Positions 6,385 to 62,274 of a stretch of DNA of 64,000 nt are shown here, piece after piece. Made by a program: the position numbers and the translations under genes. The stretch is taken from the sequence record MW269952.1; one strand, given 5' to 3'. This stretch comes from Escherichia phage P479. The notes beneath the pieces were generated by a model. The model ran no database searches, was not told the origin of the DNA, and worked only from the letters and a program-made list of their open reading frames with translations. Each line of letters opens with the position of its first letter. The stretch's first letter is position 1.

Positions 6385-6446
6385 GGTTTACATCACCATA
6401 AAAAGGGTGTACTATTATCCCATCAACTACTGATGAGGATAATAAA
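6385..6446 (+). promoter_or_regulatory. early promoter-like cassette, degenerate copy
   Basis: GTTTACA and GGTGTAC then conserved leader CCATCAACTACTGATGAGGATAATAAAATG; -10 spacing atypical. Confidence 0.4.
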
Positions 6447-6695
6447 ATGTTATTAGTTAATGTGCATTACCAGTTCAAATCTGAAGAAGCTCTCCAAAAG
6501 TATGCTGATATTTGTGAGCATAATAAAAGAACAGCTGCCATTGTTGGTCTGAAGCCTTTTAAAATTTTGGATTGCTCCTTGAACAGAGCAAGGCGCTGGT
6601 GTAGTGTTGCCTGTCATGCTTCAGTTGAAGGGAATGATTATTTTTTCATTACTTTCAATGCACAAGATTTTCATTTAATTAATGAATTAAAATAG
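6447..6695 (+). CDS. hypothetical protein (82 aa)
   Basis: ORF preceded by conserved leader CCATCAACTACTGATGAGGATAATAAAATG. Confidence 0.55.
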   Translation: MLLVNVHYQFKSEEALQKYADICEHNKRTAAIVGLKPFKILDCSLNRARRWCSVACHASVEGNDYFFITFNAQDFHLINELK

Positions 6696-6750
6696 TGTAC
6701 AAGCCCCTTGTCTTAGGACATAATGATTTCATATTGAGTTACACAATAAA
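6691..6750 (+). promoter_or_regulatory. early promoter (GTGTACA, 17 bp, CATAAT) plus leader box
   Basis: GTGTACA 6696-6702, CATAAT 6719-6724, box CATATTGAGTTACACAAT. Confidence 0.6.
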
Positions 6751-6773
6751 CCAACTGTTAAAAGGAAAACCAT

Positions 6774-7076
6774 ATGTTTAATCAAACCGACATGAATCGT
6801 TACTATTTTGGACAATTCGCTCGCCGTGATGAAAACTGTGCTGCTCTTATCGCATCAGGCATTCAAACTGGTAAATTAATAAAGCTCAAAAGCGATGTTC
6901 AACCTTCATCTGTTCGCAGCTCTCTTCGTGAATATCTGCTTGCAGGCGGTGAAGTATATGTTATCGCTGAACCTTTTGTTAATGTGTGCGATGATTACAC
7001 AATTAGTGTGACTGTTATGCACCCAACTACTGGGAAAATTCGTTGTCTGACTATGCACAACTATGAGTTGGCATAA
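6774..7076 (+). CDS. hypothetical protein (100 aa)
   Basis: ORF with upstream promoter cassette and RBS AAAGGAAAA. Confidence 0.55.
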   Translation: MFNQTDMNRYYFGQFARRDENCAALIASGIQTGKLIKLKSDVQPSSVRSSLREYLLAGGEVYVIAEPFVNVCDDYTISVTVMHPTTGKIRCLTMHNYELA

Positions 7077-7085
7077 GTGAACAAA

Positions 7086-7137
7086 GGGGCTTACAGCCCC
7101 TTTTTCTTATGTTATAATGACCCTATCAACTACTGGA
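7086..7137 (+). promoter_or_regulatory. stem-loop with embedded -35, then TATAAT and leader box
   Basis: Hairpin GGGGCTTACAGCCCC (CTTACA in loop), TATAAT 7114-7119, box CCTATCAACTACTGGAG. Confidence 0.55.
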
Positions 7138-7144
7138 GAATAAA

Positions 7145-7462
7145 ATGAAAACCATTGATTGCAAGGCAGAATACAAAGTTTATTATCATGGGTCAAGCTC
7201 TAATGCTGGAATCCAAAATATGCTTTGTCCTCCTGATGCAACTGGTGTTCTGTCAGAAGTTGGGCGTAAGAAAAATTTAGGGCGTGTGTTTTTTACTGAA
7301 GATATTGGTTTGGCGCGTATCTATGCAGGAAGAGCAGCTCGCTCATATGGAGGAGAACCCCGTCTTTATCGTGTGATTGCACCTGTTGACGTGGTTTGTT
7401 TAAATGATACTAAAGGCGCAACAGTTTATCATGCTGCCTGGGCGTTTTGTGAGGAAATCTAA
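7145..7462 (+). CDS. hypothetical protein (105 aa) with YHGSS motif
   Basis: ORF with RBS GGAGAATAAAATG; H-G-S near N-terminus plus conserved Y and C-terminal EE. Confidence 0.55.
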   Translation: MKTIDCKAEYKVYYHGSSSNAGIQNMLCPPDATGVLSEVGRKKNLGRVFFTEDIGLARIYAGRAARSYGGEPRLYRVIAPVDVVCLNDTKGATVYHAAWAFCEEI

Positions 7463-7666
7463 ATGTATAAATTAGAGAACGTAGTGTTTATTGGTTGGTT
7501 TGAAAATGGCAATATGTTTACCAAAGAAACTGCGCTGGATGTCAGTGACAAAAATATGATTGAATGGGTTACAGTGCAGTATGCAGAAGTGAATAATGCG
7601 CTGGTTAAAGCCTTTGTTAATGATAATAAAGTTTTTGAATATGATTATCGTTCTAACGAAAAATAA
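7463..7666 (+). CDS. hypothetical protein (67 aa)
   Basis: Start abuts the stop of the 7145 ORF (TAAATG). Confidence 0.5.
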   Translation: MYKLENVVFIGWFENGNMFTKETALDVSDKNMIEWVTVQYAEVNNALVKAFVNDNKVFEYDYRSNEK

Positions 7667-7668
7667 CA

Positions 7669-7721
7669 GTTTACATCAAAGGGATAATGCTGTATATTAT
7701 CCCTATCAACTACTGAGGAGA
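7669..7721 (+). promoter_or_regulatory. early promoter plus stem-loop cassette
   Basis: GTTTACA 7669-7675; stem GGGATAAT...ATTATCCC over the -10; box TATCAACTACTGAGGAG. Confidence 0.6.
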
Positions 7722-7726
7722 TTGAA

Positions 7727-8020
7727 ATGAAAAAGTTATTAATCGCAGCAATTCTTACCGTAGCATCATGTGGTACAGCTCCAGTTACTGCTGGACTTGA
7801 TAAAGACCTTTGTGAGTGGTCTATGACCGCCGACCAGACTGATGTTGAACATCAGATTTATGCTGATATCATGAACATTACTAAACGTGACCGTCCAGAT
7901 ATGGTTAAAGAAGTATCTGACCAACTGGCTTCTGGTGACGTTATGCAGTATAACTATGTTCTGTATTGCGATGCTTCATTTGACAACAGCAAGATTGTTC
8001 AATGGGTTACAGGTGAATAA
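7727..8020 (+). CDS. putative lipoprotein
   Basis: Signal peptide with lipobox VASCG. Confidence 0.55.
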   Translation: MKKLLIAAILTVASCGTAPVTAGLDKDLCEWSMTADQTDVEHQIYADIMNITKRDRPDMVKEVSDQLASGDVMQYNYVLYCDASFDNSKIVQWVTGE

Positions 8021-10873: not shown

Positions 10874-10881
10874 TATTTATG
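10874..10881 (-). promoter_or_regulatory. late-promoter-like CATAAATA (minus-strand membrane protein pair)
   Basis: 7/8 match to TATAAATA 17 nt upstream of ATG at 10857; strong RBS follows. Confidence 0.4.
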
Positions 10882-14247: not shown

Positions 14248-14477
14248 ACTGGTTAACAAATATTCCCACATCGGCGCTGGATATCGACCGTAAACACGCT
14301 CATAAGGAAATTGAGCAACAAAAAATTAATCGCTTACAAAGGATTAAGACTGAATCCGAGACAATTAAAGTCAAACGCCCGACAGAATCGAAAAGTTCTT
14401 ACTCATCATATCAATCTCCGATTGGCATGGCCGCAGACATTGCAGTCTTTGGCGTCCCACTTGGAGTATTTAAGTAG
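14244..14477 (+). CDS. hypothetical protein (77 aa)
   Basis: In-frame ATG inside track ORF 14223..14477, coupled by ATGA. Confidence 0.45.
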   Translation: MNWLTNIPTSALDIDRKHAHKEIEQQKINRLQRIKTESETIKVKRPTESKSSYSSYQSPIGMAADIAVFGVPLGVFK

Positions 14478-14533
14478 TTTACTTACTCCCCTCCTAATGA
14501 CATAATGGTCTTTCTTACAACAGAGAGGCCATT

Positions 14534-15094
14534 ATGAACATCATCAAATCTGATACCGAACCCAACCAGTTAAAATTTAGTGAAATGGAGATAGCTTCAT
14601 TATTTGAATGCCGCACATCAAAAGTCGATAAGACCTTGCATTCAAACGTTAACTCAATCATCAAGTCAAGGTTATCTGTACCTGATACAGTCTTGTATCG
14701 TGGGGTTACCCAGCAAGAGATTGATTTGTTAGATGAAGCAAAAGAATCAATGCAACCTTTTGAATTTGGAAGGATAACCTCCTTTACAGAAGACTATGGT
14801 ATTGCCAGGGATTTTGCTGCAATGGAATATGTGTCAAGGACTATCATCAGATTGAATCATACAAAAGCTTTTTGTTACCATGATGCGATGCGCAAAATCG
14901 CGCTTGATGTTCCACTGGAATTCTTCAATACAGCCTCTGGTTCCAAACAGGCAGCAACGTTAAGACGTGAAGAATACATGGACATGATTGATTCTGAGCT
15001 TGAATGGTTTGTTCCAGTTGACCAGAAATTCGTGGTGGTTGATGCTGGATTTGTTGGTGATTATTATGTTCTTGACTGTGTACAAGAGCAATAA
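14534..15094 (+). CDS. ModA/ModB-like ADP-ribosyltransferase (paralog 1)
   Basis: 186 aa; R-S-E triad candidates LYRG, SFT, ELEW; position between soc and dda as T4 modA/modB. Confidence 0.6.
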   Translation: MNIIKSDTEPNQLKFSEMEIASLFECRTSKVDKTLHSNVNSIIKSRLSVPDTVLYRGVTQQEIDLLDEAKESMQPFEFGRITSFTEDYGIARDFAAMEYVSRTIIRLNHTKAFCYHDAMRKIALDVPLEFFNTASGSKQAATLRREEYMDMIDSELEWFVPVDQKFVVVDAGFVGDYYVLDCVQEQ

Positions 15095-15138
15095 GACACG
15101 TTAAGATGTTCCTATCAACTACTGATGAGGATAATAAA
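15072..15138 (+). promoter_or_regulatory. early promoter (inside 3' end of upstream gene) plus leader box
   Basis: TTGACTGTGTACA then GTTAAGATGTTCC; box CCTATCAACTACTGATGAGGATAATAAAATG. Confidence 0.5.
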
Positions 15139-15753
15139 ATGCTGTACGCAAGTCACCAATTAGCAGAGTACATCAATGCAGTTAAATGTGAATATTTTCG
15201 TGAAAATACCCAGATTGAAATTGATGAAATTTACTCTGAGTTGGAACAGAGTACACTCTGGCAGTGCATGGAAAATAAGCCAGACACTATCCAGGAAACT
15301 TTGAACAAAATTATTCGTAAGAATTTGACTTCTGTTGTGCCTGGTAAGTTATATCGCGGGATTTCTAAGAAAACTTTGGCATATCTTGAAACCGTAGGAT
15401 GTGTTGGTGCTACGATTGAGTTTGACCGTGTAATGAGTTTCTCCAAAGATTTCAGTGTTGCGCGTAACTTTGCTTCCTTTAGCTTCTATGGAACCAAAAA
15501 TATTTTCTGTATTAATGATGCACCATTCGCATTTGATTATCAGGAAGCGATTTTTAAAATGATTTGTGCGGCACCTCCTGAAGAGTTCAACGGACTATAT
15601 CCTGAAATAACTCGTTCTTCAAACTTGCAATTAGTAAATGATGAAGATGAGATGATGTTCCCTGCGGGAACTACGCTACGCGTGGACTCTATTGAGAGCA
15701 TTTATAGATGGGAAGACTATAAATTATGGAATCTTTCCGTTCTTTCTTACTGA
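15139..15753 (+). CDS. ModA/ModB-like ADP-ribosyltransferase (paralog 2)
   Basis: 204 aa from ATG 15139 (track N-terminus reads through the conserved leader); LYRG, SFS, EDE motifs. Confidence 0.6.
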   Translation: MLYASHQLAEYINAVKCEYFRENTQIEIDEIYSELEQSTLWQCMENKPDTIQETLNKIIRKNLTSVVPGKLYRGISKKTLAYLETVGCVGATIEFDRVMSFSKDFSVARNFASFSFYGTKNIFCINDAPFAFDYQEAIFKMICAAPPEEFNGLYPEITRSSNLQLVNDEDEMMFPAGTTLRVDSIESIYRWEDYKLWNLSVLSY

Positions 15754-15827
15754 AGTATTCTGGGTTAACAAAAGGCCAAAGACCTTAGAACCATTATACA
15801 CAGTAAAAATAAAAGCGTTAAAGGCTA

Positions 15828-15880
15828 AAAAGTAGTGTACATAAAAGATGTATAGTGTATAATGAATCCATACTGAGTTT
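15828..15880 (+). promoter_or_regulatory. early promoter cassette
   Basis: AAAAGTAGTGTACA; TATAAT 15858-15863 (17-bp spacer); box CCATACTGAGTT. Confidence 0.6.
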
Positions 15881-15909
15881 TCAATCGTCCGTAAGATGAG
15901 AAAAATATC

Positions 15910-16653
15910 ATGAATATGTCAAAAGAAGAGTTTGAATTAAAAGTTTACAAACGTCGCGAGCATACCAAAACGTCTGCAAAACGTCGTAACAAGGATTTCA
16001 ATCTGTCTAGTAAGTATATCGCCAATCTTTTGAAACAAGAATTCTGTGCGTATTCTGGTGAACGTTTTGATGAAAATTCAACTCAAGATAAAGTTTCCTT
16101 TGAACGCTTTAACAATGATATAGGTTATATTGAAGGCAATGTTATCCCTGTCAAAACTAAGTACAACGGTTTACGTGCTGATTTATCTCTTGATGAACTT
16201 AAACGTGCGCAGACTCGTTTGGCGGTGCGTATTAATGGCGGTTCTAAGATGCCCAATAGTTTTAAAGTAACTCCTGCTGACTATTATAAAATTCGCAAAA
16301 TTGTTAAAAATATTAAAGATACCGAACGTGGAATCAAGAAACGTCAAAAACATTTAAAAGAGCTTTATAAAAGTGGCGCTAAAGATACCACCCCTTCTGT
16401 GATTGCAGTCAAGGCTCGTATCCATGGACAAATGGCTTCCATCGGAACTAGTCAACGTGGGCTGAAAATGGTTATGGGTGGTCCTGACTGGCGTCTGAAA
16501 ATGAAATCATCTGACGCTGAAACGCGTTACGATATGTATGATAAAATTATTCAAGGTCTGGAGCGTTTAGATAAGTTGTCATTCATTGACCGCCTTAAAC
16601 TGAAACGTGGTCTACCTTTGAACGCGTCAATTTTTAAACTGATTAGAGGTTAA
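15910..16653 (+). CDS. srd: Srd-position protein with degenerate HNH-like segment
   Basis: 247 aa between mod genes and dda; basic; weak HNH-like FERFNNDIGYIEGNV without the catalytic His; assignment by position and size only. Confidence 0.35.
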   Translation: MNMSKEEFELKVYKRREHTKTSAKRRNKDFNLSSKYIANLLKQEFCAYSGERFDENSTQDKVSFERFNNDIGYIEGNVIPVKTKYNGLRADLSLDELKRAQTRLAVRINGGSKMPNSFKVTPADYYKIRKIVKNIKDTERGIKKRQKHLKELYKSGAKDTTPSVIAVKARIHGQMASIGTSQRGLKMVMGGPDWRLKMKSSDAETRYDMYDKIIQGLERLDKLSFIDRLKLKRGLPLNASIFKLIRG

Positions 16654-18511: not shown

Positions 18512-19187
18512 TGCTATTATTGACTTTGAAACTCTGGGAAACGGCTCGAAGGGAGCCGTTATTGACCTGGCTCTGATTACATTCGAATCTGACCCTGCTA
18601 TTGTAGAATCATTCGAAACTCTGGTTAATCGCGGCAAACGCATTAAGTTCAGCCTTGAATATCAAAAAGGTAAGCGGCTGTTCGACACAACAACTATGGG
18701 TTGGTGGAAAAAGCAATCAGCCGAAGCACGTGTTAACCTGGTCCCTTCTGCGCAAGATGTTGATACTTTAACTGGTATCCAACAGGCGATTGACTATCTG
18801 AATGGTAATGGAATTAACAAATATGAAAGCCTTATGTGGTGTCGTGGAATGTCTTTTGACTTCCCGTTATTTGTTGACCTTATCCGTGACCTGCAGCGCA
18901 ATGAGGGCATTCCCGAGCGTGAATTGAATACCTATAACCTGGAGCCGGTTGTATTCTGGAACCAGCGAGATATCAGAACCGCAATCGAAGCCCTGTCACT
19001 CGTCCGTAAAATGTGTGAAACTCCATTACCAAAGGGGACTTTAGATGGATTCGTGGCACACGATTCGGTGCATGACTGCGCGAAAGATATTTTGATGTTG
19101 AAGTATGCCCAGCGCTATGCTCTTGGTTTAGATGAAGTTCCTTCCGAAGAAGATGCAGACCCATTATCTTTGCCGAAAAAACGATAA
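18504..19187 (+). CDS. dexA: DexA exonuclease A
   Basis: 227 aa (same as T4 DexA); DnaQ-like DFETLG start; follows dda. Confidence 0.85.
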   Translation: MIDAIIDFETLGNGSKGAVIDLALITFESDPAIVESFETLVNRGKRIKFSLEYQKGKRLFDTTTMGWWKKQSAEARVNLVPSAQDVDTLTGIQQAIDYLNGNGINKYESLMWCRGMSFDFPLFVDLIRDLQRNEGIPERELNTYNLEPVVFWNQRDIRTAIEALSLVRKMCETPLPKGTLDGFVAHDSVHDCAKDILMLKYAQRYALGLDEVPSEEDADPLSLPKKR

Positions 19188-19254
19188 AAAGTAGTGTACA
19201 AGGCCAATGGAAAGAGACATAATCATCTCATCAACTACTGATGAGGATAACAAA
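19187..19254 (+). promoter_or_regulatory. early promoter cassette
   Basis: AAAAGTAGTGTACA; CATAAT 19218-19223; box CATCAACTACTGATGAGGATAACAAAATG. Confidence 0.6.
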
Positions 19255-19512
19255 ATGATTACTTCTTTTGAAATTGGCCAACAATATGAAATGTCTGCTC
19301 TTCAAGCTGCTGAAGCAGGTCTGACTAAAGCGTTTGAATGCGCATTTACAAATATTCGTGGTAAAATCTTTACTGTCAATAAAATTGCGGTATATGATAA
19401 AGAAACAGACATGAACAAAGGCATCTACCTGAACGTGTCAAATGCAAAAGGTCGTCGTGAAATTATGGTTGTACAACCTAATCAACTGGCGATGTTCAAT
19501 AAGGTTGCATAA
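19255..19512 (+). CDS. hypothetical protein (85 aa)
   Basis: ATG after conserved leader; track start 19207 lies inside the promoter cassette. Confidence 0.5.
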   Translation: MITSFEIGQQYEMSALQAAEAGLTKAFECAFTNIRGKIFTVNKIAVYDKETDMNKGIYLNVSNAKGRREIMVVQPNQLAMFNKVA

Positions 19513-20267
19513 TGAAACCAGAATTTATTGACTTTGATGTTGTAAGTATGTATGTTCGCCCAATTAAACCATTAAAACTTGAGAAACAAAATATGACTAT
19601 TGAAATTAACAAAACTTATCAACTGATTGAACCTATTATTCAAAACGCAGCTATGGTTTCTGGGTATAATACTCTGGCTGATGCTTTAGGTGAAGGTGAA
19701 TTTATTGTTGAAACTTTTGTAAAAAGTAACTGGTTTGATAAAGCATATATTCTGCATGCACGTCGCCTTGATACAAATGAAGTAGAAAAAATTATGGTTT
19801 ATGAAGCTGAGATTGAACTCTTCAAAGAAGTTGAAGAAACTCCTATCAAAGTTGGTAAAACCTACCAGCTTATTGAAGATGATAGTCAATTTGGAAAGAC
19901 TGTCGCAATGCATGCTGGTTGGCGGGTACTGAAAGGTATTTTTGGATTTACTCCATTTACCGTTAAAACAGTTAAGTACCACAATCACCAAAGCATCTTT
20001 GAATTTACTGCAGTCAATGAATCAGGTGACAATCTTGAAGCTATCCTTTATCCGCGTGAATCTGTACTGCTGGAAGAAGTTAGCGAACTGGGCGACCCTA
20101 TTGACTTGCTATGTAAACCAGTTCAAATCAAACGCCCATTTAACAGTTCCATTTGTGGTTGGGTAACAGACCAGTGGATTGAAGATGGTGTTGAACTCCT
20201 GAACGTTGTCCATGCTGGTGAATTTACTGTTGTACCACGTTCCATGGTTGTTGAAATTTTTAATTAA
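19512..20267 (+). CDS. MotB-related protein with internal duplication (251 aa)
   Basis: C-terminus GWVTDQWIEDGVELLNVVHAGEFTVVP matches the C-terminus of the next ORF; internal repeat KTYQLIE. Confidence 0.5.
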   Translation: MKPEFIDFDVVSMYVRPIKPLKLEKQNMTIEINKTYQLIEPIIQNAAMVSGYNTLADALGEGEFIVETFVKSNWFDKAYILHARRLDTNEVEKIMVYEAEIELFKEVEETPIKVGKTYQLIEDDSQFGKTVAMHAGWRVLKGIFGFTPFTVKTVKYHNHQSIFEFTAVNESGDNLEAILYPRESVLLEEVSELGDPIDLLCKPVQIKRPFNSSICGWVTDQWIEDGVELLNVVHAGEFTVVPRSMVVEIFN

Positions 20268-20274
20268 ATTTAAA

Positions 20275-20318
20275 GTGTACAAACTCATGGGGTCAGAGTA
20301 TAATGACCCCACTGGAGA
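20275..20318 (+). promoter_or_regulatory. early promoter plus stem-loop cassette (44-bp repeat copy 1)
   Basis: AGTGTACAAACTCATGGGGTCAGAGTATAATGACCCCACTGGAG; -10 in hairpin loop. Confidence 0.65.
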
Positions 20319-20346
20319 ATAAACTTATTAATCAAGAGAGAAAATT

Positions 20347-20838
20347 ATGAAAGTTGAAGAAGGTGATATTGTACGTGTTTCTAAAGAATCTCGTTCTAAA
20401 GCTGCTGGTCGTTTTGTTGAGGTTGTGAGTCTTCGCACTAATTTAGTAGGTGGAATTAAAGAAGTTAAAGTGCGTATTATTCCTAAACATGGTCATGCTG
20501 AAACTCAATTGGCTTATGTACATCCTAAATTCCTGGAATCAACTGAATTTACTGGATACATCGCTCCAGTAGTTGAAGAAGTTGAAACCATCGACCAGTC
20601 TCATGTTGGGGTTGATTTTAAATGGAAATTAGGTAAAGGTGTCTTTTTCGTTTCACCTAAACCGTTTGAATACAATTGCATGTACGGTCCGACTTATGAA
20701 ACCACTAGTATGTCCGGTTACATCACCGACCAGTGGGTTGAAGAAGGTGTTAAGCTGTATAATATCGTGTTCCTTGGAACCTTTAAAGTAGTTCCTGAGA
20801 GCTTTATCGTTGAGTATGCCGATATTCATTTTGCCTAA
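20347..20838 (+). CDS. motB: MotB-like protein
   Basis: 163 aa (T4 MotB 162 aa); N-terminal KOW-like GDIVRV; position between dexA and 39. Confidence 0.5.
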   Translation: MKVEEGDIVRVSKESRSKAAGRFVEVVSLRTNLVGGIKEVKVRIIPKHGHAETQLAYVHPKFLESTEFTGYIAPVVEEVETIDQSHVGVDFKWKLGKGVFFVSPKPFEYNCMYGPTYETTSMSGYITDQWVEEGVKLYNIVFLGTFKVVPESFIVEYADIHFA

Positions 20839-24802: not shown

Positions 24803-24805
24803 CCA

Positions 24806-24829
24806 AAAGGACCTTCGGGTCCTTTTTTA
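24806..24829 (+). terminator. intrinsic terminator
   Basis: AAAGGACC-TTCG-GGTCCTTT then TTTT. Confidence 0.75.
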
Positions 24830-24831
24830 TT

Positions 24832-24878
24832 ATGTACAAGCCATAAAAATTGTGTTAAGATGTCCTTGAGGTGAAAAT
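24832..24878 (+). promoter_or_regulatory. early promoter
   Basis: TGTACA 24833-24838, 17 bp, TAAGAT in GTTAAGATGTCC; same -10 variant as at 15100. Confidence 0.5.
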
Positions 24879-25163
24879 ATGATTATGTCCGACGGAAGTT
24901 TAGTTAATCTGCAGAATGTTGCACGTTGTATTATGGAAGCTGGTCTGAGGAAGGTGCAGGAGCTCCCAGATAGCGACAGGAAGCGAAGTTACTTGTTAGC
25001 TGTAAGAACAGCAGCCATGAGCATTAAGGCTGGCCAGAAGGTCCCTGAGGAGCGAATTGAAGCACTCCTTGCATTGATATACCATGACCAAGAACATAAA
25101 GCTACCATGCGTAGTATGAGAAAAATATTACAGGAGATTGGAAATGACGAACTTCAAAGTTAA
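24879..25163 (+). CDS. hypothetical protein (94 aa)
   Basis: ORF. Confidence 0.5.
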   Translation: MIMSDGSLVNLQNVARCIMEAGLRKVQELPDSDRKRSYLLAVRTAAMSIKAGQKVPEERIEALLALIYHDQEHKATMRSMRKILQEIGNDELQS

Positions 25164-29069: not shown

Positions 29070-29646
29070 AACATGGGAGCATCTGAAAAAGATGCCCTCC
29101 TTTCTTTATACAAAGGAAGACTTAAACCCCGAATCCCTGCAGAAGATTGTAGATACTGCCAGGTATTCATTGCGTAAAGACCCAGGTCAGGACCGTGAGC
29201 AAGTCATGCAAAGATGCATGGTTGCTACAATGGCTGAACAAGCTATTGCTAAATGGACCTCCGGTTTTTTATGTGGCGGCGATGAAGATTACGATAATCC
29301 TTACTCCTTTGCATTTGATGTAGTTTCGAAGGAAGGGGTAAGAATCGAAGTCAAGACCCACCAGTCTGGTTCCAAATGGATATCCGTGCATACTGGCCAC
29401 CAGGGCGATTATCCGCATGGTTACGGGATTAATCTTGGGCCATTTATGCAGCACAAGCTTGCTGACCTTATGATTATGCTCGATGTAAAAGAGACTCACA
29501 AAGGTTATAGATTTAAACCAAAATTCCTTGCTGGGCCTGGTGCTTTCGTTCCTGAGTCTGGTCTTGTGCAGAAGTCACAAGGGGATGGTTGGTACCTCCG
29601 TTCTTGTTCAGAAGAAAAATTTCCCTATCACCGGTTTACAAGCTGA
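29053..29646 (+). CDS. putative PD-(D/E)xK-type nuclease (197 aa)
   Basis: FDVVSKEGVRIEVKT resembles a D...E-x-K core; occupies the T4 denB position. Confidence 0.35.
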   Translation: MIQKSKTWEHLKKMPSFLYTKEDLNPESLQKIVDTARYSLRKDPGQDREQVMQRCMVATMAEQAIAKWTSGFLCGGDEDYDNPYSFAFDVVSKEGVRIEVKTHQSGSKWISVHTGHQGDYPHGYGINLGPFMQHKLADLMIMLDVKETHKGYRFKPKFLAGPGAFVPESGLVQKSQGDGWYLRSCSEEKFPYHRFTS

Positions 29647-29693
29647 ACCAACTGTGTAATAATGTCCTCATACCAACAAATGAGGACATTATC

Positions 29694-29969
29694 ATGGAAC
29701 ACGTTACTACTCACAACATCAAACAAATTCTTATCCAAGCACTCAAAAACAACAACATCAATTTTCCAACTCATGAAATTTTTGATGTAACATTCAACGA
29801 AGTCCAGGGTCAAGTTGCATATTATGACGTTATTGTTTATCTTTCAGAATTTGAAGTCTACCACCTGACTGAAATTGCTTTATATCTCTATCGCGGGACT
29901 GCAGATTTTACTGGGGTTGTGAATGCGGTTGGTGCATATAAAGAAGTTAAAGAACAAATGCACAATTAA
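29694..29969 (+). CDS. hypothetical protein (91 aa)
   Basis: In-frame ATG after a 10-bp hairpin. Confidence 0.45.
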   Translation: MEHVTTHNIKQILIQALKNNNINFPTHEIFDVTFNEVQGQVAYYDVIVYLSEFEVYHLTEIALYLYRGTADFTGVVNAVGAYKEVKEQMHN

Positions 29970-30044
29970 AAAGTAGTGTACATCAGTATGGAGTCAGTGC
30001 ATAATGGCTTCATACTGAGTTACCAAACAGTCTGGAGAAACAAA
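29968..30044 (+). promoter_or_regulatory. early promoter cassette
   Basis: AAAAGTAGTGTACA; CATAAT 30000-30005; box TCATACTGAGTTAC; RBS GGAGAAA. Confidence 0.6.
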
Positions 30045-30308
30045 ATGAAATTTAAATTTTACTATGTCAAGCATAAAGTTACTGGGGAATTTGTTGCATC
30101 CGCGACCTTTGTCACCGGCGAAGGCGATACATACACCACAATGTTTTTATCAAAATGGGAATCAGACCAACCATATCTGTCAACTCGCGAAGACCTTCAA
30201 CGTTTGATTGATGGGCAATATAATAATTCCTGGTCCATTGATGTGTATAAATGTATTCAACATGCAATTGTTGAAAATCAACTTGAAATCATTGAGGTGG
30301 AATTGTGA
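30045..30308 (+). CDS. hypothetical protein (87 aa)
   Basis: ATG after RBS GGAGAAACAAA; track start 29976 is a GTG inside the promoter. Confidence 0.5.
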   Translation: MKFKFYYVKHKVTGEFVASATFVTGEGDTYTTMFLSKWESDQPYLSTREDLQRLIDGQYNNSWSIDVYKCIQHAIVENQLEIIEVEL

Positions 30309-30391
30309 GCAGCAGAACCTGGTGTTTTATCTGGATGTTGTGCATCCCAGTAATTTGTGTTTGTTTTAGTTTATTATTATTGAAACTTGCA

Positions 30392-30453
30392 TAAAAGAGT
30401 GTACATCTCCGGTGGTTGTAGTATAATGAACCTATCAACTACTGGAGATGATT
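30392..30453 (+). promoter_or_regulatory. early promoter cassette
   Basis: GTGTACA 30399-30405, 17 bp, TATAAT 30422-30427; box CCTATCAACTACTGGAG. Confidence 0.6.
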
Positions 30454-30564
30454 ATGAAAAAGTTACTTAAAGCCATTTGGAACATGTTTGTACTGTTTGT
30501 TGTCCTGAGCATTTTCCCAATTGTTTTTATGATTGACCATGTGCGTGTTTACTTTAACTTCTGA
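30454..30564 (+). CDS. small membrane protein (36 aa)
   Basis: RBS GGAGATGATT; hydrophobic; hand-translated. Confidence 0.35.
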   Translation: MKKLLKAIWNMFVLFVVLSIFPIVFMIDHVRVYFNF

Positions 30565-30952: not shown

Positions 30953-31297
30953 ATGTCTAAAGTATTTTTTGGTAATCGCAACATTATGTTCTTTAAACAG
31001 ATTAGCATATCAGAAGCATTTGATTTAAGTTATTCAGGTGGTACAAAAGCTGTTAGCCTTAAAAATTTGATGTCTGCAGAATTTGCATTCTATCAGGACC
31101 CTGAAACTGGTTTCTACAAATTTATTAAGTTCCGCATGACTATGGACCGCGATTATCGTGACGTTTATTATACAAGTTATGAAAGTGTTATCAATGCAAT
31201 TCGTGAAGCTTATGGATTGGATTCGTTGTCTCTTGACCGCCTGTACAATGCAAGCCTTTACACCAGCGGATTTATTTTAGAACAGCTTCAAAAATAG
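30953..31297 (+). CDS. hypothetical protein (114 aa)
   Basis: Preceded by AAGGAAAATATTATG. Confidence 0.5.
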   Translation: MSKVFFGNRNIMFFKQISISEAFDLSYSGGTKAVSLKNLMSAEFAFYQDPETGFYKFIKFRMTMDRDYRDVYYTSYESVINAIREAYGLDSLSLDRLYNASLYTSGFILEQLQK

Positions 31298-31370
31298 TGT
31301 ACAAACTCTTGGGGTCAGAGTATAATGACCCCACTGGAGCACAAAACTTTAACTTATTGAGGAAATTAAT
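31296..31370 (+). promoter_or_regulatory. early promoter plus stem-loop cassette (44-bp repeat copy 2)
   Basis: AGTGTACAAACTCTTGGGGTCAGAGTATAATGACCCCACTGGAG; 43/44 identical to 20275-20318. Confidence 0.65.
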
Positions 31371-31820
31371 ATGTCTACTTACATGACCCGTCGTGACGTA
31401 CTGAATGCTGGCGCTACTACTGTTGCTTACATCCATAATGGTAATTATGTTGCAGGGCGCCCAACTAAAGAAGCTGTCACTCAACCAGGTTTTTATTTCG
31501 TGGTTAAAGGCGAAGGCGAATCACGTATTGTTGCTGCACGTTTTTATGTTGGTAACCAACGTTCACAACAAGGGTTTGACACTGTATTAAGTCACATCCG
31601 CAAACAACGTTCACAACTGTCGCGCACAATGGCGAACAATGGTGTTATCTATGAAGTCCTGTTTGTTCCAGTTTCTAAAATGAAACCTTTGACAACTGGT
31701 TATGGTAAAGGTCAAATTGCGATGGCGTTCACACGCTCACATAGTTCTGATTGTCAGACCCTTTCAGAAATGAATCGCATGCTTGCTGATAACTTTAAAT
31801 TCATTCTACAGAGCTATTAA
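31371..31820 (+). CDS. ndd: Ndd-like nucleoid disruption protein
   Basis: 149 aa (T4 Ndd ~151 aa); [10 protein letters not shown] and [11 protein letters not shown] recalled as Ndd-like; between rIIB and 52. Confidence 0.5.
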
Positions 31821-33642: not shown

Positions 33643-33665
33643 GACCCTTCGGGGTCCTTTTTTAT
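33641..33665 (+). terminator. intrinsic terminator (after gene 52 operon)
   Basis: AGGACCC-TTCG-GGGTCCT then TTTTTT. Confidence 0.75.
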
Positions 33666-33669
33666 TTTA

Positions 33670-33756
33670 AAAAAGTAGTGTACAATCCCCTTGACCTGAT
33701 GCATAATGATTCCATACTGAGTTACACAATGAATCACAAAAACTTTGGAGAATAAA
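33670..33756 (+). promoter_or_regulatory. early promoter cassette
   Basis: AAAAAGTAGTGTACA; CATAAT 33702-33707; box CCATACTGAGTTACACAAT. Confidence 0.6.
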
Positions 33757-36249: not shown

Positions 36250-36414
36250 ATGAGTCATAACTTAGAGAACACCATCACTGGGCAACGCACACGCGAGCAG
36301 GCTTGCTTTGAGGAATTCCTTGGAGCTGATTTTAAGTTCCAGGAACCAGTTGAACAGATGTATCAGGAATATGTTGTACAGATGAAAAATCATGTGTACA
36401 ACCCAGAGGAATAA
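36250..36414 (+). CDS. hypothetical protein (54 aa)
   Basis: RBS TGAGGAGTAAGCTATG; hand-translated. Confidence 0.4.
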   Translation: MSHNLENTITGQRTREQACFEEFLGADFKFQEPVEQMYQEYVVQMKNHVYNPEE

Positions 36415-36472
36415 TAGTACAATATCCTTACTGAATAATTGAATGTCTTATTGAATACTTGAGTAAATTAAA

Positions 36473-36748
36473 ATGACTAAATTTGAAATCGTTTCTGAAA
36501 TTGTTACTGTAACTTCAATTTTGATTAAAACCGACCGGGAAGATATTACGATGAAGCGTGATGTGTTTATCGCGTTTTTGAATGAGTTGGGATTGCGGAA
36601 TGAGAATGGGAATGAGTTAAACAATGTATCGTTTAACAAGTTGTTTAAAAGTTTATCCGAAGATGAAATTGAACAAATCATTGAACAATTTAACGAAGGA
36701 TTCGAAGATATACACCGTTATCTTATGATGTATACCTCCGGATTCTAA
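36473..36748 (+). CDS. asiA: AsiA anti-sigma70 factor
   Basis: 91 aa; VTVTSILIK, FIAFLNE, FNEGFE, RYLMMYT match T4 AsiA. Confidence 0.85.
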   Translation: MTKFEIVSEIVTVTSILIKTDREDITMKRDVFIAFLNELGLRNENGNELNNVSFNKLFKSLSEDEIEQIIEQFNEGFEDIHRYLMMYTSGF

Positions 36749-50572: not shown

Positions 50573-50597
50573 AGGGGACCTTCGGGTCCCTTTTTTA
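50573..50597 (+). terminator. intrinsic terminator (after gene 32)
   Basis: GGGGACC-TTCG-GGTCCC then TTTTTT. Confidence 0.8.
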
Positions 50598-50602
50598 TTT
50601 TC

Positions 50603-50678
50603 AAAAAGTAGTGTACAAGTCCCTTGAGCTAAGGCATAATGATTCCATCAACTACTGATAACAACTGAGGAAATAAAA
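50603..50678 (+). promoter_or_regulatory. early promoter cassette
   Basis: AAAAAGTAGTGTACA; CATAAT 50635-50640; box CCATCAACTACTGATAACAACTGAGGAAA. Confidence 0.6.
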
Positions 50679-51041
50679 ATGGAAATCGGCAAAAAATATG
50701 AGTTCAATCCACATCGTATTAAATCTTTCATTGATATTAGTTCATCGAATGCTAGTATGGTCGACATCATCCAAGAAAATGGCGGTTGGTTTGAAGTTAA
50801 ATCAATATCAAGTGCAGACGGCTATGATTATGTAACCGAAATCATTTGTGCTAATGGTGCAATCTATAATGATGATGGCATGGGTGATGATTATTTTGAA
50901 CTTAGTGAAGAAGAGTTTTATTGCTTCCGTGAATACTCCAATTATACAAAAACACCTTCGGGGGCGGTTTCTATTAATTGTGTTGTAGATGCTAATAACG
51001 TCGACCAAATCATTGAACTTCTACAAAAAGCTTTCAAATAG
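50679..51041 (+). CDS. hypothetical protein, paralog of 51390 ORF (120 aa)
   Basis: GKKYEFNP, DDYFELSEEEFYCF, IIELLQKAF mirror the 51390 ORF. Confidence 0.55.
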   Translation: MEIGKKYEFNPHRIKSFIDISSSNASMVDIIQENGGWFEVKSISSADGYDYVTEIICANGAIYNDDGMGDDYFELSEEEFYCFREYSNYTKTPSGAVSINCVVDANNVDQIIELLQKAFK

Positions 51042-51043
51042 CA

Positions 51044-51103
51044 GTTTGCAACGGGTCTATGATTATGTTATTATAGACCTATCAACTACATGAGGAAAAT
51101 AAA
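51044..51103 (+). promoter_or_regulatory. stem-loop cassette with leader box
   Basis: GGTCTATgattatgttattATAGACC; box TATCAACTACATGAGGAAAATAAAATG. Confidence 0.5.
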
Positions 51104-51331
51104 ATGGCTAAGGTTAATATTGATATCGTTGATTTTGAATACACTTACGAAGTTATCCGTAATCGTTATCCTTCTTTGTGTATGACTTACATTAAAGATA
51201 CCCAATTCTTTAGTATTCAAATTGAAGTTCAAGGTCCTCTCAAAGACCTTACCCGCTTTATGCAAAATGAATATTGCGAAGGGATGCACCCGGAAGATGC
51301 TGAATTTTATATGGGCTTGATTCAAGCTTAG
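51104..51331 (+). CDS. hypothetical protein (75 aa)
   Basis: ORF after stem-loop cassette. Confidence 0.5.
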
Positions 51332-51389
51332 TATACAAACCAACGGGAACATGATAATATGTTCCCTCAACAAAAATGAGGAAATTAAA
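51331..51389 (+). promoter_or_regulatory. early promoter plus stem-loop cassette
   Basis: GTATACA; stem GGGAACATgataatATGTTCCC with GATAAT in loop. Confidence 0.5.
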
Positions 51390-51758
51390 ATGATGGAAAC
51401 TGGTAAATTTTACGTATTAGACCCTGCTGCTAAAAAACAATTCATCGCTGGTAGTCCTGATGATAATTCGTGCATGGTCAAGTTGATGGAACAACATGGT
51501 AGTTCCTTCAAAGTCCTGGATATGTGCTATATTGAAGGTGATTATTTTGTTGAAAAAGTTGAAATGAAAGATGGTACCATCCTGAATAGTATGGGTGATT
51601 TTGATGAGTACTTTGAACTCGCTGAATGGGAATTCTGTCACTTCCTGGAAGTTGATGGCGATGCTCCTGATGTTGATACCCAAACCATTCATGTGCAAGT
51701 CAATCACAAAAATGCCGCAGAAGTCATTGCACTGATTAAAGCAACTTTTGGGGTCTAA
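51390..51758 (+). CDS. hypothetical protein, paralog of 50679 ORF (122 aa)
   Basis: In-frame ATG 51390 after RBS TGAGGAAATTAAA. Confidence 0.55.
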   Translation: MMETGKFYVLDPAAKKQFIAGSPDDNSCMVKLMEQHGSSFKVLDMCYIEGDYFVEKVEMKDGTILNSMGDFDEYFELAEWEFCHFLEVDGDAPDVDTQTIHVQVNHKNAAEVIALIKATFGV

Positions 51759-52014
51759 TATGACTAAAGATGATTTCCTGGATGCAGTAGAAAAGGCGAG
51801 TGAACAGTTTGAAGTAATGGGTGTACGTTTACATAAAGACAGAAATTATGGTCTGGATGTTCAAACATACTCATTATGGCTTGTTGGTGAACATAGTCTT
51901 GCAACCAATCTGGTGATGGGTGTAGATACCTATCCTTTATTAGTTAAGTCCAGAAGTATGGAAAAAGCCACCAAGGAAATGACTAAACTTGGAAAATGGC
52001 TTGATAAAATTTAA
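51748..52014 (+). CDS. hypothetical protein (88 aa)
   Basis: ORF. Confidence 0.5.
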   Translation: MGSNMTKDDFLDAVEKASEQFEVMGVRLHKDRNYGLDVQTYSLWLVGEHSLATNLVMGVDTYPLLVKSRSMEKATKEMTKLGKWLDKI

Positions 52015-52089
52015 AAAGTAGTGTACAACCAAATGGGGCTATAATATAATGGTCCCATACTGAGTTACACAATAAAACTGGAGAATAAA
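52014..52089 (+). promoter_or_regulatory. early promoter cassette
   Basis: AAAAGTAGTGTACA; ATATAAT; box CCCATACTGAGTTACACAAT; RBS CTGGAGAATAAA. Confidence 0.6.
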
Positions 52090-52329
52090 ATGAAATTACA
52101 ACGTGAGAGCATCAAAGATTCAGAAGTTAAAGGCAAATGGTATTTCACAATCCAAGGTAACAATCCAGAAGCTCTGGAAAAAGCTGAAGAAGCTTTGTGC
52201 GCAATGGGTTGGAAAGATGAGTGTGATGGTTGTCCTCTTTATGAAGATGGTAGCTCATCTGGTTTCTGGATTCACCACTCTGACGTTGACCAATTTAAAG
52301 CTGACTGGAAAATCGCTAAGAAAGCGTGA
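52090..52329 (+). CDS. hypothetical protein (79 aa)
   Basis: ORF after promoter cassette. Confidence 0.5.
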   Translation: MKLQRESIKDSEVKGKWYFTIQGNNPEALEKAEEALCAMGWKDECDGCPLYEDGSSSGFWIHHSDVDQFKADWKIAKKA

Positions 52330-60654: not shown

Positions 60655-60659
60655 TAAAA

Positions 60660-60725
60660 AAGGGGTGTACAAGCCCCTTCTTTCTATACATAATGGTTCC
60701 ATCAACTACTGATGAGGACTAAAAC
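60660..60725 (+). promoter_or_regulatory. terminator-like hairpin carrying -35 in its loop, plus -10 and leader box
   Basis: AGGGGtgtacaaGCCCCTT; CATAAT 60689-60694 (18-bp spacer); box CCATCAACTACTGATGAGGA. Confidence 0.6.
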
Positions 60726-60959
60726 ATGTTAAACTTAATTACAAATGAAAGAGTTACACAGGCATATGGTGACAGTAATGACGGAATCTATGTCTACAAG
60801 GGAGACCGCCGGATTGGTTTCATTACTGACCTGAAGGCCAAATTGTTAAAAGAACTGAAAGCTCAAACAGGTGATTCTGGGTTTAGAGCAAGAGCCAAAA
60901 AGAAAGATGAACGCCTGGGTGCCAACTCTTTTGGTCCTAGAGGTTACAACCGCTACTAA
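60726..60959 (+). CDS. hypothetical basic protein (77 aa)
   Basis: Shares DGIYVYKG..GF.TDL N-terminal module with the next ORF. Confidence 0.5.
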   Translation: MLNLITNERVTQAYGDSNDGIYVYKGDRRIGFITDLKAKLLKELKAQTGDSGFRARAKKKDERLGANSFGPRGYNRY

Positions 60960-60972
60960 TGAGGAAAATATT

Positions 60973-61476
60973 ATGAATATGCAACTGATTTCAAATGATA
61001 TGATTGTTGATGTATATGGTGACCGCCATGACGGAATCTATGTTTATAAAGGTTCCAAAAATGTTGGGTTCCTTACTGACTTAAGAAAGAAACTGGCGTC
61101 TGATAATAAGTTGAAGGCGAAACAAAAAGAATATCGTGATAAGAAATCAGAAGAGCGGAAAGAAGCCCTTCATGAATCTGTTCCCGAAATGGTTGACTTC
61201 TTAAAGAACCATTTGGTTAAATATGATGCAGAAGTGTTCATCAATCAGACCCAACCTAATGTGCATATCAATGGATGTGTTTGTTATGTTGTGGTTGAAC
61301 CCCTGACACTTCAACACCGCCTGGGAATTAAACACCCAGTGTTAACCCAGGATGATATGGCGGATGAAGTTGGTAATCAGTTCCGCATTTCAACATCTGA
61401 CAGTACAAATCACATCCTCCTGAATGGTTTATCCCAGGATGATATTGTTGAGGTAATCATCAAGTTATGCAAATAA
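60973..61476 (+). CDS. hypothetical protein (167 aa)
   Basis: In-frame ATG 60973; occupies the T4 alc position, similarity not assessed. Confidence 0.5.
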   Translation: MNMQLISNDMIVDVYGDRHDGIYVYKGSKNVGFLTDLRKKLASDNKLKAKQKEYRDKKSEERKEALHESVPEMVDFLKNHLVKYDAEVFINQTQPNVHINGCVCYVVVEPLTLQHRLGIKHPVLTQDDMADEVGNQFRISTSDSTNHILLNGLSQDDIVEVIIKLCK

Positions 61477-61820
61477 GTAATCTCACCACAGGGCTTATGC
61501 TCGCCCTGGTAGTAACTGCTGGTAGTGGTTTCTATCTAAAAGCAAAAGTGGATAATCTCAAGACGGCGGTGGCGGAAGTCACCAAAGTCGCAGAAGATAA
61601 TGCGAAAAATCTGCAATCAGTAAAAGACCAGGTTAATCAAATTAATCTCCTTGACCAACAGCGACAGGAATATGTTGAACACCTGCAGAAGGAAAATGAT
61701 AAACTTCGCGCAGATGCAAAACGTACTAAGGTTGTGGCAGCGAAGCCTAAATTAGTCGAAAAACAGATTAATCAGTCATTTGATAAGTTCGCCCAGGACT
61801 TCCAGGAGCTCACCAAATGA
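61467..61820 (+). CDS. i-spanin (PseT.3-like)
   Basis: 117 aa; N-terminal TM then coiled coil; start overlaps next gene; adjacent to pseT. Confidence 0.6.
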   Translation: MQISNLTTGLMLALVVTAGSGFYLKAKVDNLKTAVAEVTKVAEDNAKNLQSVKDQVNQINLLDQQRQEYVEHLQKENDKLRADAKRTKVVAAKPKLVEKQINQSFDKFAQDFQELTK

Positions 61821-62107
61821 TGAAATCTATCCTGGCAGTATGTTTGGCTATTGGACTCGTTTCATGCGCCCAGAAGCCCGTTGTGGAGCCCACAATCCAA
61901 GTTCATCCTAATTGGCCCGTTGCATTGGCTGATTACAAACAGCAATGGGAAGTGAAGGTAATTGAGGGTCAAGCCTGGGTTGGTATGCCTTTTGAAGCAT
62001 CGCAAGAATTCAGGATTTGGATGAATGATGTAAAAAGGTATGTACATGACCAAAAAGGCATGTTATGTTATTATCGTTCTGAACTAAAAGAGGAACGTTG
62101 CAAATGA
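61817..62107 (+). CDS. o-spanin lipoprotein (PseT.2-like)
   Basis: 96 aa; lipobox LVSCA; ATGA-coupled to i-spanin. Confidence 0.6.
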   Translation: MMKSILAVCLAIGLVSCAQKPVVEPTIQVHPNWPVALADYKQQWEVKVIEGQAWVGMPFEASQEFRIWMNDVKRYVHDQKGMLCYYRSELKEERCK

Positions 62108-62211
62108 TTGAGTCTTGTATTGATGGGTCGGATGTCATTCTATTTGGCTTTACATGCTTTTGTTTTGGAATCATGCTTAGCATGTGTATAAATGGTATTT
62201 TTGGAAAGTAG
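62104..62211 (+). CDS. small Cys-rich membrane peptide (35 aa)
   Basis: ATGA-coupled; hand-translated. Confidence 0.3.
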   Translation: MIESCIDGSDVILFGFTCFCFGIMLSMCINGIFGK

Positions 62212-62274
62212 TTTACAAACTCTTGGGAGCAGAGTATAATGCTCCCACGGATTATAAAATTTGAGGAAATTATT
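62210..62274 (+). promoter_or_regulatory. early promoter plus stem-loop cassette (third relative of the 44-bp repeat)
   Basis: GTTTACAAACTCTTGGGAGCAGAGTATAATGCTCCCA. Confidence 0.6.

Follow-up and report, generated by a model that had tools for sequence, protein, structure and literature searches.

Early promoter, hairpin and leader cassettes repeated between the early genes of the T4-like Escherichia phage P479

Cassettes on the early-gene strand

The 64,000-nucleotide (nt) stretch of Escherichia phage P479 analysed here (MW269952.1; hereafter the window) repeatedly carries, in the gaps between early genes, a composite element in which a promoter, often a hairpin and a short leader precede the start codon. 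Megablast searches with three parts of the window place its closest relatives among the T4-like coliphages of the genus Gaprivervirus (VR7, RZ, PSD2001, P896 and the TH series), at ~95% identity and with many insertions and deletions (indels). Comparison with the annotated relatives identifies the + strand of the window as the T4 early-gene strand, on which the end of gene 43 is followed by imm, uvsX, 41, dmd, sp, 61, 56, soc, modB, modA, srd, dda, dexA, motB, 39, rIIA/B, denB, ndd, 52, motA and asiA. A - strand block of tail-fibre/holin genes follows at 36.7-47.3 kb, after which the + strand continues with 59, 32, frd/td, nrdA/B, rnlA and the alc and pseT regions.

Inspection of all gaps by eye yielded 23 cassettes, all on the + strand, 22 of them within 6385-62274 and one at 2218-2299 (Table 1). 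Their layout comprises an A-tract, a -35 heptamer GTGTACA or GTTTACA, a spacer, a -10 hexamer YATAAT, a predicted start ~7 nt further on, and a leader of 10-43 nt that ends in a ribosome-binding site (RBS) and an ATG. The 23-copy alignment gives the phage-specific extended consensus aaaaAGTA-GTgTACA-N17-tATAAT-G..CC-A-T, with an information content of 11.1 bits in the -35 and 8.0 bits in the -10. The spacer, put at 17-19 base pairs (bp) by an earlier sequence-only reading of the window, measures 16-18 nt when counted from the heptamer, with 17 nt in 20 of the 23 copies. Directly 5' of the heptamer stands the motif aaaaAGTA, and the A+T content over the 25 nt upstream ranges from 56% to 92%. 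The predicted start falls on the A of the conserved CC-A-T, 6-8 nt past the -10, and a Shine-Dalgarno (SD)-like motif with its ATG follows at the stated leader distance in all 23 cassettes.

The repeated cassette is real. The string GTGTACA-N16-18-YATAAT matches 11 times, always on the + strand, against 0.01 matches expected, while GTKTACA with at most one mismatch finds 18 + strand sites and none on the - strand; noise appears at two mismatches (28 on + and 17 on -). An nhmmer profile built from the 23 copies recovers those copies alone, with none on the - strand at E<=10, and four relatives hold 17-20 motif copies each on the corresponding strand and none on the opposite one. The composite intergenic element, estimated at about 21 copies in the sequence-only reading, is thereby confirmed. 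A generic scan for sigma-70 promoters plus terminators was uninformative (59 matches, 55 expected), indicating that the signal lies in the phage-specific extended consensus.

All cassettes are intergenic or overlap the 3' end of a gene, and none falls within the tail-fibre block. They occupy ~22-23 of the 33-37 gaps of at least 35 nt, about two thirds, so that the earlier impression of a cassette in nearly every gap was overstated; middle promoters with a MotA box, a late promoter or plain hairpins are found in the remainder. Among the genes that they precede are the T4 early genes imm, sp, modB, modA, srd, motB, ndd, the motA region and asiA. T4 itself carries GTTTAC-N17-TATAAT at the orthologous motB, srd and modB positions, and the placement upstream of these three genes agrees between the window and T4. 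The proteins encoded downstream of the cassettes are unrelated to one another, as had been proposed, except for two paralogue pairs, modB/modA and 50679/51390.

Table 1. The 23 cassettes of the window, with coordinates, strand and the first position of the -10 hexamer, by which cassettes are cited in the text. Box A is CCATCAACTACTGATGAGGA and box B is CCATACTGAGTTACACAAT.
Cassette	Coordinates	Strand	-10 start	Features
1	2218..2299	+	2254	5' of imm-like 80-amino-acid membrane protein; GTTTACA-N17-TATGAT; spacer hairpin CGGCAAT/ATTGCCG; leader CATCAACTGATG; outside 6385-62274
2	6358..6449	+	6410	upstream terminator AGACCttcgGGTCT + T-run; GTTTACA-N17-TACTAT; box A; 12-bp hairpin, discriminator to SD, -13.7 kcal/mol
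3	6683..6776	+	6719	GTGTACA-N17-CATAAT; box B variant
4	7077..7147	+	7113	terminator hairpin AAAGGGGC/GCCCCTTT + T-run encloses -35 GCTTACA; TATAAT; leader ATCAACTACTGGAGAATAAAATG, contains exact RegB/S1 11-mer
5	7657..7729	+	7693	5' of sp (spackle); GTTTACA-N17-TATATT; hairpin GGGATAAT/ATTATCCC around -10
6	14465..14536	+	14501	5' of modB; GTTTACT-N17-CATAAT; 15-bp hairpin, -10/discriminator with SD/AUG
7	15066..15141	+	15102	5' of modA; -35 GTGTACA within modB 3' end; TAAGAT; box A
8	15823..15912	+	15858	5' of srd; GTGTACA-N16-TATAAT; box-B-type 5' leader
9	19182..19257	+	19218	GTGTACA-N17-CATAAT; box A; identical across five genomes compared
10	20263..20349	+	20299	5' of motB; helix GGGGTC/GACCCC around -10; T4 motB orthologue has GGGACC/GGTCCC
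11	24803..24881	+	24856	upstream terminator GGACCttcgGGTCC + T-run; ATGTACA-N17-TAAGAT; weakest match, nhmmer E=0.002
12	29622..29696	+	29658	GTTTACA-N17-AATAAT; 13-bp hairpin, -10 to SD, -17.3 kcal/mol
13	29964..30047	+	30000	GTGTACA-N17-CATAAT; helix GGAGTC/GGCTTC via G.U wobbles; box B variant; breakpoint at 30050
14	30387..30456	+	30422	GTGTACA-N16-TATAAT; long hairpin, spacer with leader + SD GGAG, -18.2 kcal/mol
15	31285..31373	+	31321	5' of ndd; spacer + helix nearly identical to cassette 10
16	33643..33759	+	33702	5' of motA.1/motA region; upstream terminator; GTGTACA-N17-CATAAT; box B; RBS GGAGAATAAAA
17	36382..36475	+	36418	5' of asiA; GTGTACA-N17-TACAAT
18	50574..50681	+	50635	mosaic: upstream half 91% identical to that of cassette 16, leader box-A-type
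19	51032..51106	+	51069	GTTTGCA-N18-TATTAT; hairpin GGTCTAT/ATAGACC around -10
20	51319..51392	+	51355	GTATACA-N17-TAATAT; hairpin GGGAACAT/ATGTTCCC around -10
21	52009..52092	+	52045	GTGTACA-N17-TATAAT; helix GGGGCT/GGTCCC, two G.U pairs; box B; RBS GGAGAATAAAA
22	60655..60728	+	60689	hairpin AAGGGG/CCCCTT, T-rich tail, around -35; CATAAT; box A
23	62199..62277	+	62235	GTTTACA-N17-TATAAT; helix GGGAGC/GCTCCC around -10; relatives have extra gene after leader

Hairpins in and around the promoters

The segments from -70 to the predicted start fold better than their dinucleotide shuffles in 21 of the 23 cassettes (mean z -1.76, Wilcoxon p ~1e-6), and individual hairpins reach z values of -3.3 to -8.3. 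GC-rich hairpins do enclose the -10 or the -35, as the sequence-only reading had noticed, and occur also upstream of the promoter and between the -10 and the SD. Four arrangements can be distinguished. An upstream GC hairpin followed by a T-run is found at 6410, 24856, 33702 and 50635, and a terminator-like hairpin with the -35 in its loop at 7113 and 60689, so that six hairpins in total combine a GC stem with a T-run. A helix that encloses the -10, with the discriminator as its 3' arm, occurs at 7693, 20299, 30000, 31321, 51069, 51355, 52045 and 62235, and weakly at 36418. The last arrangement pairs the -10/discriminator (the spacer in 30422) with the SD/AUG at 6410, 14501, 29658 and 30422, and weakly at 60689 and 50635.

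The -10-enclosing helix could be aligned in the same register across 14 distinct sequences, comprising paralogues, orthologues and the T4 motB copy. In this alignment 98.8% of cells are paired, compared with 87% in shuffles (reached in 0 of 500) and 37-61% in slid registers. Two pairs are doubly compensated, with U-A, C-G and G-C at one position, and the alignment contains 12 G.U cells and no A.C cell. Single substitutions in the other hairpins are wobble-compatible as well. The asymmetry between G.U and A.C, together with these wobble-compatible changes, suggests that selection acts through the sense strand, on transcripts that come in from upstream.

Such RNA could also mask the RBS. The mean probability that the RBS is unpaired, taken over the 23 cassettes, is 0.58 in RNA that begins at the cassette's own start, 0.48 in read-through RNA and 0.49 with shuffled upstream sequence. 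At 6410, 14501 and 29658 it drops from 0.50-0.64 to 0.09-0.18 on read-through, a value that at most 5% of shuffled-upstream controls match; the effect is marginal at 30422, 50635 and 60689. A notable case is the modB hairpin at 14501, in which CAUAAU and the discriminator pair with the SD and AUG (-20.2 kcal/mol, z -8.3). VR7 modB retains this hairpin with wobble positions swapped, and T4 modB has an 18-bp hairpin of other sequence and the same architecture (-20.3 kcal/mol, z -6.9). The T4 hairpin lies at ~13131-13186 on the - strand of AF158101 (L010), again with the -10/discriminator paired to the SD/AUG.

The examples of RBS-sequestering hairpins given in a T4 review are the late genes e, soc, 49 and I-TevI, and modB is not listed among them (PMC3014915). 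As in those genes, the 5' arm lies upstream of the proximal start in 6410, 14501 and 29658, and in the weaker cases 30422, 50635 and 60689, so that only read-through RNA could occlude the SD and AUG. In contrast to T4, where the embedded promoter is late, the promoter here is early, and only a minority of cassettes are involved. The effect predicted from the folding models would be to confine translation to the period in which the early promoter fires.

Comparison with PeSL cassettes and T4 early promoters

Promoter early stem-loops (PeSLs) are defined as an AT-rich tract, a sigma-70-type early promoter, a stem-loop, an SD and an ATG between small early genes (Arbiol 2010, PMC2839356). Their stem-loop takes one of five positions, including over the -35 or the -10, and contains G-T pairs, and promoter and terminator activity have been demonstrated experimentally in RB49/phi1 (PMC2839356). 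PeSLs were later extended to T4/PST and KVP40/nt-1 (Comeau 2014, PMC4122927), and PeSL-like elements have already been reported for T-even, pseudo-T-even and schizo-T-even phages, with a mention of JS98. Our literature search, which did not cover the original VR7 genome paper, found no description of promoters or PeSLs for Gaprivervirus.

The cassettes of the window share with the RB49/phi1 elements the AT-rich tract, the -35/N17/-10 promoter, the variably placed stem-loop with G-T pairs, the SD and the ATG. The stem-loop positions correspond (upstream, over the -35, between the boxes and over the -10), as do the intergenic siting among small early genes, the many copies in one orientation and the mosaic exchange inside the cassette. 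The likeness to the cassettes of RB49-like phages, first proposed in the sequence-only reading, extends to the anatomy including the hairpins over -35 and -10, and the element is the already-described PeSL type, here in a VR7-like coliphage, and not a new kind. Several features differ. The -35 is GTGTACA or GTTTACA here and a near-perfect TTGACA in RB49, and the sequence family is genus-specific, with blastn matches to a 74-nt cassette in 34 Gaprivervirus records only. The leaders fall into a few conserved families, which do not appear in the published PeSL descriptions that we consulted. Finally, the association with indels and replacements between relatives that characterizes PeSLs is not seen, and the cassettes show no excess of indel breakpoints.

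T4 early promoters have been described as "UP/-35/TGn/-10" (Hinton 2010, PMC2988021). They stand ahead of the same immediate-early genes and likewise combine an A-rich UP element, a GTTTAC-type -35, a 17-bp spacer and a TATAAT-type -10; the T4 motB promoter is recognisably orthologous, including the -10-enclosing helix. In contrast to T4, the heptamer is mostly GTGTACA here, the -10 is often CATAAT and the TGn extension occurs in only 6 of the 23 cassettes. The five T4 leaders examined are without a common box.

Shared descent and rearrangement among relatives

Within cassette subfamilies, similarity is higher than in any column permutation, and the upstream, spacer and leader segments group the cassettes differently. 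By the upstream segment, 33702 resembles 50635 (91%). By the spacer, 20299, 31321 and 62235 belong together, the first two sharing 94%. The leaders form the groups 6410/15102/19218/60689, 6719/33702/52045 and 7113/30422, and the four box A leaders of the first group share 80-90%. Mosaicism is also evident between phages: the 3' leader of the srd cassette is orthologous to the T4 srd leader, while its 5' leader has been replaced by the box-B-type sequence of this lineage, and in TH54 the gene at 7145 keeps its leader behind a different promoter half.

Some gene-content differences coincide with cassettes. Two genes with a cassette apiece make up the block 6358-7083, which TH40 and TH55 lack. 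In TH54 the segment 6397-7107 is replaced, both junctions lying inside cassettes, and a junction at 7665 falls at the -35 of cassette 5 in TH40 and TH54. In RZ (at 64086-64610 of that genome) and TH55, cassette 23 is separated from the gene that follows by an extra gene of ~160 amino acids (aa). Exactly this gene is missing from the window, with the junction at 62270-62280 (62278) at a TATGA shared around two start codons; to judge from this junction, the loss is a TATGA microhomology deletion and not an exchange between cassettes.

Against four relatives, breakpoints occur in 6 of 21 cassette junctions and in 29 of 77 other gene junctions (odds ratio 0.66, Fisher p=0.61), and of the 48 breakpoint ends, 38 coincide with a gene junction, whether or not it holds a cassette. 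In this data set the cassettes are thus not preferred sites of gene gain or loss. The proposal that they drive modular gene shuffling did not hold up in this comparison with related genomes, in which breakpoints were not enriched beside cassettes, and what remains of it are the few junctions inside cassettes and the mosaic halves.

These counts bear directly on the reading that the cassettes are primarily recombination modules, as in the PeSL mini-circle model, in which exchange between neighbours excises or inserts the flanked genes and so drives differences in gene content. We consider this reading doubtful, albeit the strongest of the alternatives. It draws on the mini-circles and the crossovers between -10 and ATG published for RB49/phi1 (PMC2839356), on the TH40/TH55 and TH54 differences with junctions at 6397 and 7107, on the junction at the -35 at 7665, and on the discordant partitions of upstream, spacer and leader segments. 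It has to contend, however, with the breakpoint counts at cassette and non-cassette junctions and with the placement of most breakpoint ends at gene junctions in general. Moreover, no homology is evident at the two ends of the 6358-7083 indel, which are 5' edges of cassettes, the 62278 deletion is a microhomology event, and several variable segments are homing-endonuclease genes.

Two such homing-endonuclease open reading frames (ORFs) lie in segments missing or replaced in relatives, one of the GIY-YIG/I-TevI type (21982-22782) and one of the HNH/NUMOD3 type (57268-57909). The ORF at 11420-12103, in the segF position, is variable among relatives and has no Pfam match.

Leaders and RNA-level control

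Box A occurs in five copies at <=3 mismatches, against 0.00 expected, and box B in three, against 0.03 expected. The statement that every cassette carries one of these two boxes was too strong, as only 8 of the 23 bear either in the form originally given. A looser leader core, TCAACTAC, is found 10 times on the + strand, each time just 3' of a -10 hexamer at the predicted start, where 1.8 are expected on both strands; CATACTGAG appears in four leaders, and the remaining leaders differ. Constraint was measured as the pairwise difference between orthologous cassettes of five genomes. It is 0.016 for the -35, 0.017 for the -10, 0.033 for +1 to +12 and 0.026 for the rest of the untranslated region, rising to 0.052 in the discriminator, 0.064 in the spacer, 0.067 upstream and 0.103 at third codon positions. 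The low values relative to third codon positions indicate purifying selection on the promoter hexamers and the leader, including its 5' part (ATCAACTAC / ATACTGAG), which sits at the predicted 5' end of the transcript.

The 3' part of the leaders resembles a known control site. The strong site for RegB with ribosomal protein S1 in T4 is GG*AGRAYARAA, and RegB cuts GGAG/U (Uzan & Miller 2010, PMC3014915). Exact matches to GGAGRAYARAA number three in the window, at 7135, 33747 and 52080, and all are cassette RBSs (GGAGAATAAAA); the leader at 20314 has one mismatch. Box A ends in GGATAAYAAAA, which provides the GGAU form in three copies (6437, 15129 and 19245). At the three exact and three GGAU sites, the RBS has an unpaired probability of 0.43-0.86 in own-start RNA, and regB is annotated in VR7 and hence encoded in the genus. 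As in T4, the sites lie in the translation-initiation regions of early genes; different from T4, about half of the cassettes use a GAGGA-type RBS with no GGAG/GGAU in the right context. The GGAG/GGAU of the GGAGAATAAAA and GGATAATAAAA leaders are plausibly candidate RegB cleavage sites, and the cassettes plausibly share, in the 3' part of their leaders, an RNA-level control site of a type already known. The suggestion in the sequence-only reading of such a shared site is thus upheld for the 3' part, with its three exact and three GGAU forms, and not for the 5' core, for which the analysis yielded no binding factor.

Could the 5' cores (ATCAACTAC..., ATACTGAGTTAC...) nevertheless be operators for a dedicated RNA-binding regulator or a small RNA, apart from RegB/S1 and the promoter? 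The leader diverges 3-4 times less than third codon positions, the excess of TCAACTAC at predicted starts is pronounced, and the core also follows a MotA-type middle promoter at 12674, so that it is not tied to the early -35. The core is restricted to the genus as well: it is missing from the five T4 early leaders, and a box A scan of IMG/VR returned 17 stretches, most on three contigs and the rest single isolated matches. By these searches, the 5' leader core is confined to Gaprivervirus. On the other hand, no Rfam family reaches threshold anywhere in the window, and the CUGAUGA of box A is not part of a hammerhead. The sole stem in own-start RNA (AUCA/UGAU) has 4 bp and is missing from the ACTGGAG variants. 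Conservation of +1 to +12 is equally expected from effects of the initial transcribed sequence on promoter escape or from an unstructured, G-poor S1-binding leader, and homogenisation through exchange between cassettes could also keep the copies alike. Overall, we regard a dedicated operator as unlikely.

Still less probable, in our view, is that the cassettes are independent promoters that converged on a polymerase-optimal consensus, with no shared ancestry and no role as repeats. Convergence would fit the strongest constraint falling on the -35 and -10, the lack of breakpoint enrichment and the use of a 5-nt microhomology at start codons in the adjacent deletion. It does not account for low-consensus spacers, upstream terminator regions and leaders that are near-identical within subfamilies, beyond every column-permuted control, nor for the srd 5' leader swapped for the box-B type next to a 3' leader that is still orthologous to T4.

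That the boxes are coding sequence, forming N-terminal extensions of the downstream ORFs, is almost certainly wrong: ORFs 15106-15753 and 19207-19512 do read box A as STTDEDNKM, from chance in-frame ATGs at 15106 and 19207, and RefSeq RZ annotates the long forms of both (215 aa and 101 aa), but the same boxes stand ahead of ORFs 6447 and 60726, neither of which has an in-frame start codon 5' of the post-SD ATG, the ATG stands at a constant 7-8 nt from GAGGA in all box copies, the upstream ATGs fall inside a -10 or a spacer and have no SD, and VR7 modA is annotated at 204 aa. The missing in-frame starts at 6447 and 60726 and the length of VR7 modA rule out a coding origin, and with it the concern, raised in the sequence-only reading, that the boxes lie inside genuine genes. 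In RefSeq RZ (NC_070780.1), the entries at 22277-22924 (modA) and 18515-18820 start at ATGs inside the promoter -10 or spacer. The SD-preceded ATGs (window 15106-15138 and 19207-19254) give modA 204 aa, as in VR7, and the other ORF 85 aa. The long forms are probably start-codon misannotations that recur in related records.

Other signals in the early-gene strand

MotA-box-type middle promoters (TGCTTtA ~12 nt before TATAAT) occur in the gaps 3342-3420, 10880-10941, 12619-12694, 21919-21981 and 54675-54733, none of which has an early cassette. Two of these five promoters are preceded by a GC hairpin with a T-run, and the gap 12619-12694 resembles the early cassettes in its -10-enclosing hairpin GAGAT/ATCTC and its TCAACTAC leader. 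The sites 5' of genes 56 and 61 correspond to the T4-listed P56/69 and P61. A late-promoter motif, TATAAATA, at 12346-12384 lies immediately 5' of soc, a late gene within the early-gene strand. The short gaps 20839-20884, 24608-24649 and 28566-28598 hold strong hairpins (TGATAGGGtttgCCCTATCA, GGGAGAatatTCTCCC and GGGGCttcgGCCCC) right before the SD and no recognisable promoter.

Proposed function of the cassettes

Taken together, each cassette is very probably a unit from which a T4-like phage starts both transcription and translation of immediate-early genes. Host sigma-70 RNA polymerase would recognise the UP-like A-tract, the GTGTACA/GTTTACA -35 and the YATAAT -10 across the usually 17-bp spacer, and would initiate at the A of CC-A-T ~7 nt downstream of the -10. 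The RNA would then open with a short, G-poor leader (ATCAACTAC... or ATACTGAG...) and close in a stereotyped RBS. In many copies this RBS is GGAG/GGAU followed by AAYAAAA, the form at which T4 RegB, together with ribosomal protein S1, cleaves early mRNAs to switch them off.

Hairpins that lie upstream of or across promoter elements can form only in RNA from an upstream promoter. The six with a GC stem and T-run would be ordinary intrinsic terminators that insulate the units from one another. The ~nine that enclose the -10 end at the start site, and may act in attenuation or provide a stabilising 3' end for the upstream RNA. In three to six cassettes, the gene would be translatable from own-promoter RNA and occluded on read-through RNA, as is known for e, soc, 49 and I-TevI among the late genes of T4. 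As dispersed direct repeats of ~80-100 bp, the cassettes would also exchange segments, giving rise to the mosaic halves.

Several results weigh against parts of this proposal. The scarcity of TGn departs from the T4 promoter description, and the TCAACTAC core is found behind the middle promoter at 12674 as well. A comparison of total folding energy between strands gave no difference (p=0.38), so that the sense-strand argument draws on a single helix class, through its G.U asymmetry, and on the wobble-compatible substitutions. The -10-enclosing hairpins have no U-tract, which leaves a terminator role for them unsupported. General RBS occlusion on read-through RNA was rejected over the 23 cassettes (p=0.87 against shuffled upstream sequence), as was an enrichment of breakpoints at cassettes under the gene-junction null. 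Start sites, termination and RegB cleavage are, for this phage, all inferred from its sequence.

Implications for early gene control

The sense-strand hairpins and homogenised leaders invite a more speculative and rather unlikely idea, namely a system that tells transcripts apart by their origin. Own-promoter RNA, which lacks the 5' arm, would be translated and then cut by RegB, while read-through RNA with the full hairpin would have its RBS occluded, in the modB manner conserved from T4 to this genus. Alternatively, a RegB cut at a GGAG just 3' of the hairpin would provide the upstream message with a hairpin that protects its 3' end. On this view, translation of toxic genes, modA and modB for example, would be limited to the first minutes of infection, and temporal control by promoter-embedded hairpins, described so far in T4 for late promoters only, would apply to early ones.

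At a practical level, the cassettes flag RefSeq start-codon misannotations in which ORFs have been extended into promoters. The explicit gene-junction null tempers the claim that such elements drive shuffling. The -10 helix that compensatory changes maintain on the sense strand out to T4 motB, the RBS-occluding modB hairpin that T4 also has and the leaders that bear the RegB/S1 consensus are details open to experiment. More broadly, the analysis gives VR7-like coliphages a quantified inventory of their early promoter/leader/RBS cassettes and extends the anatomy of PeSLs to their genus.

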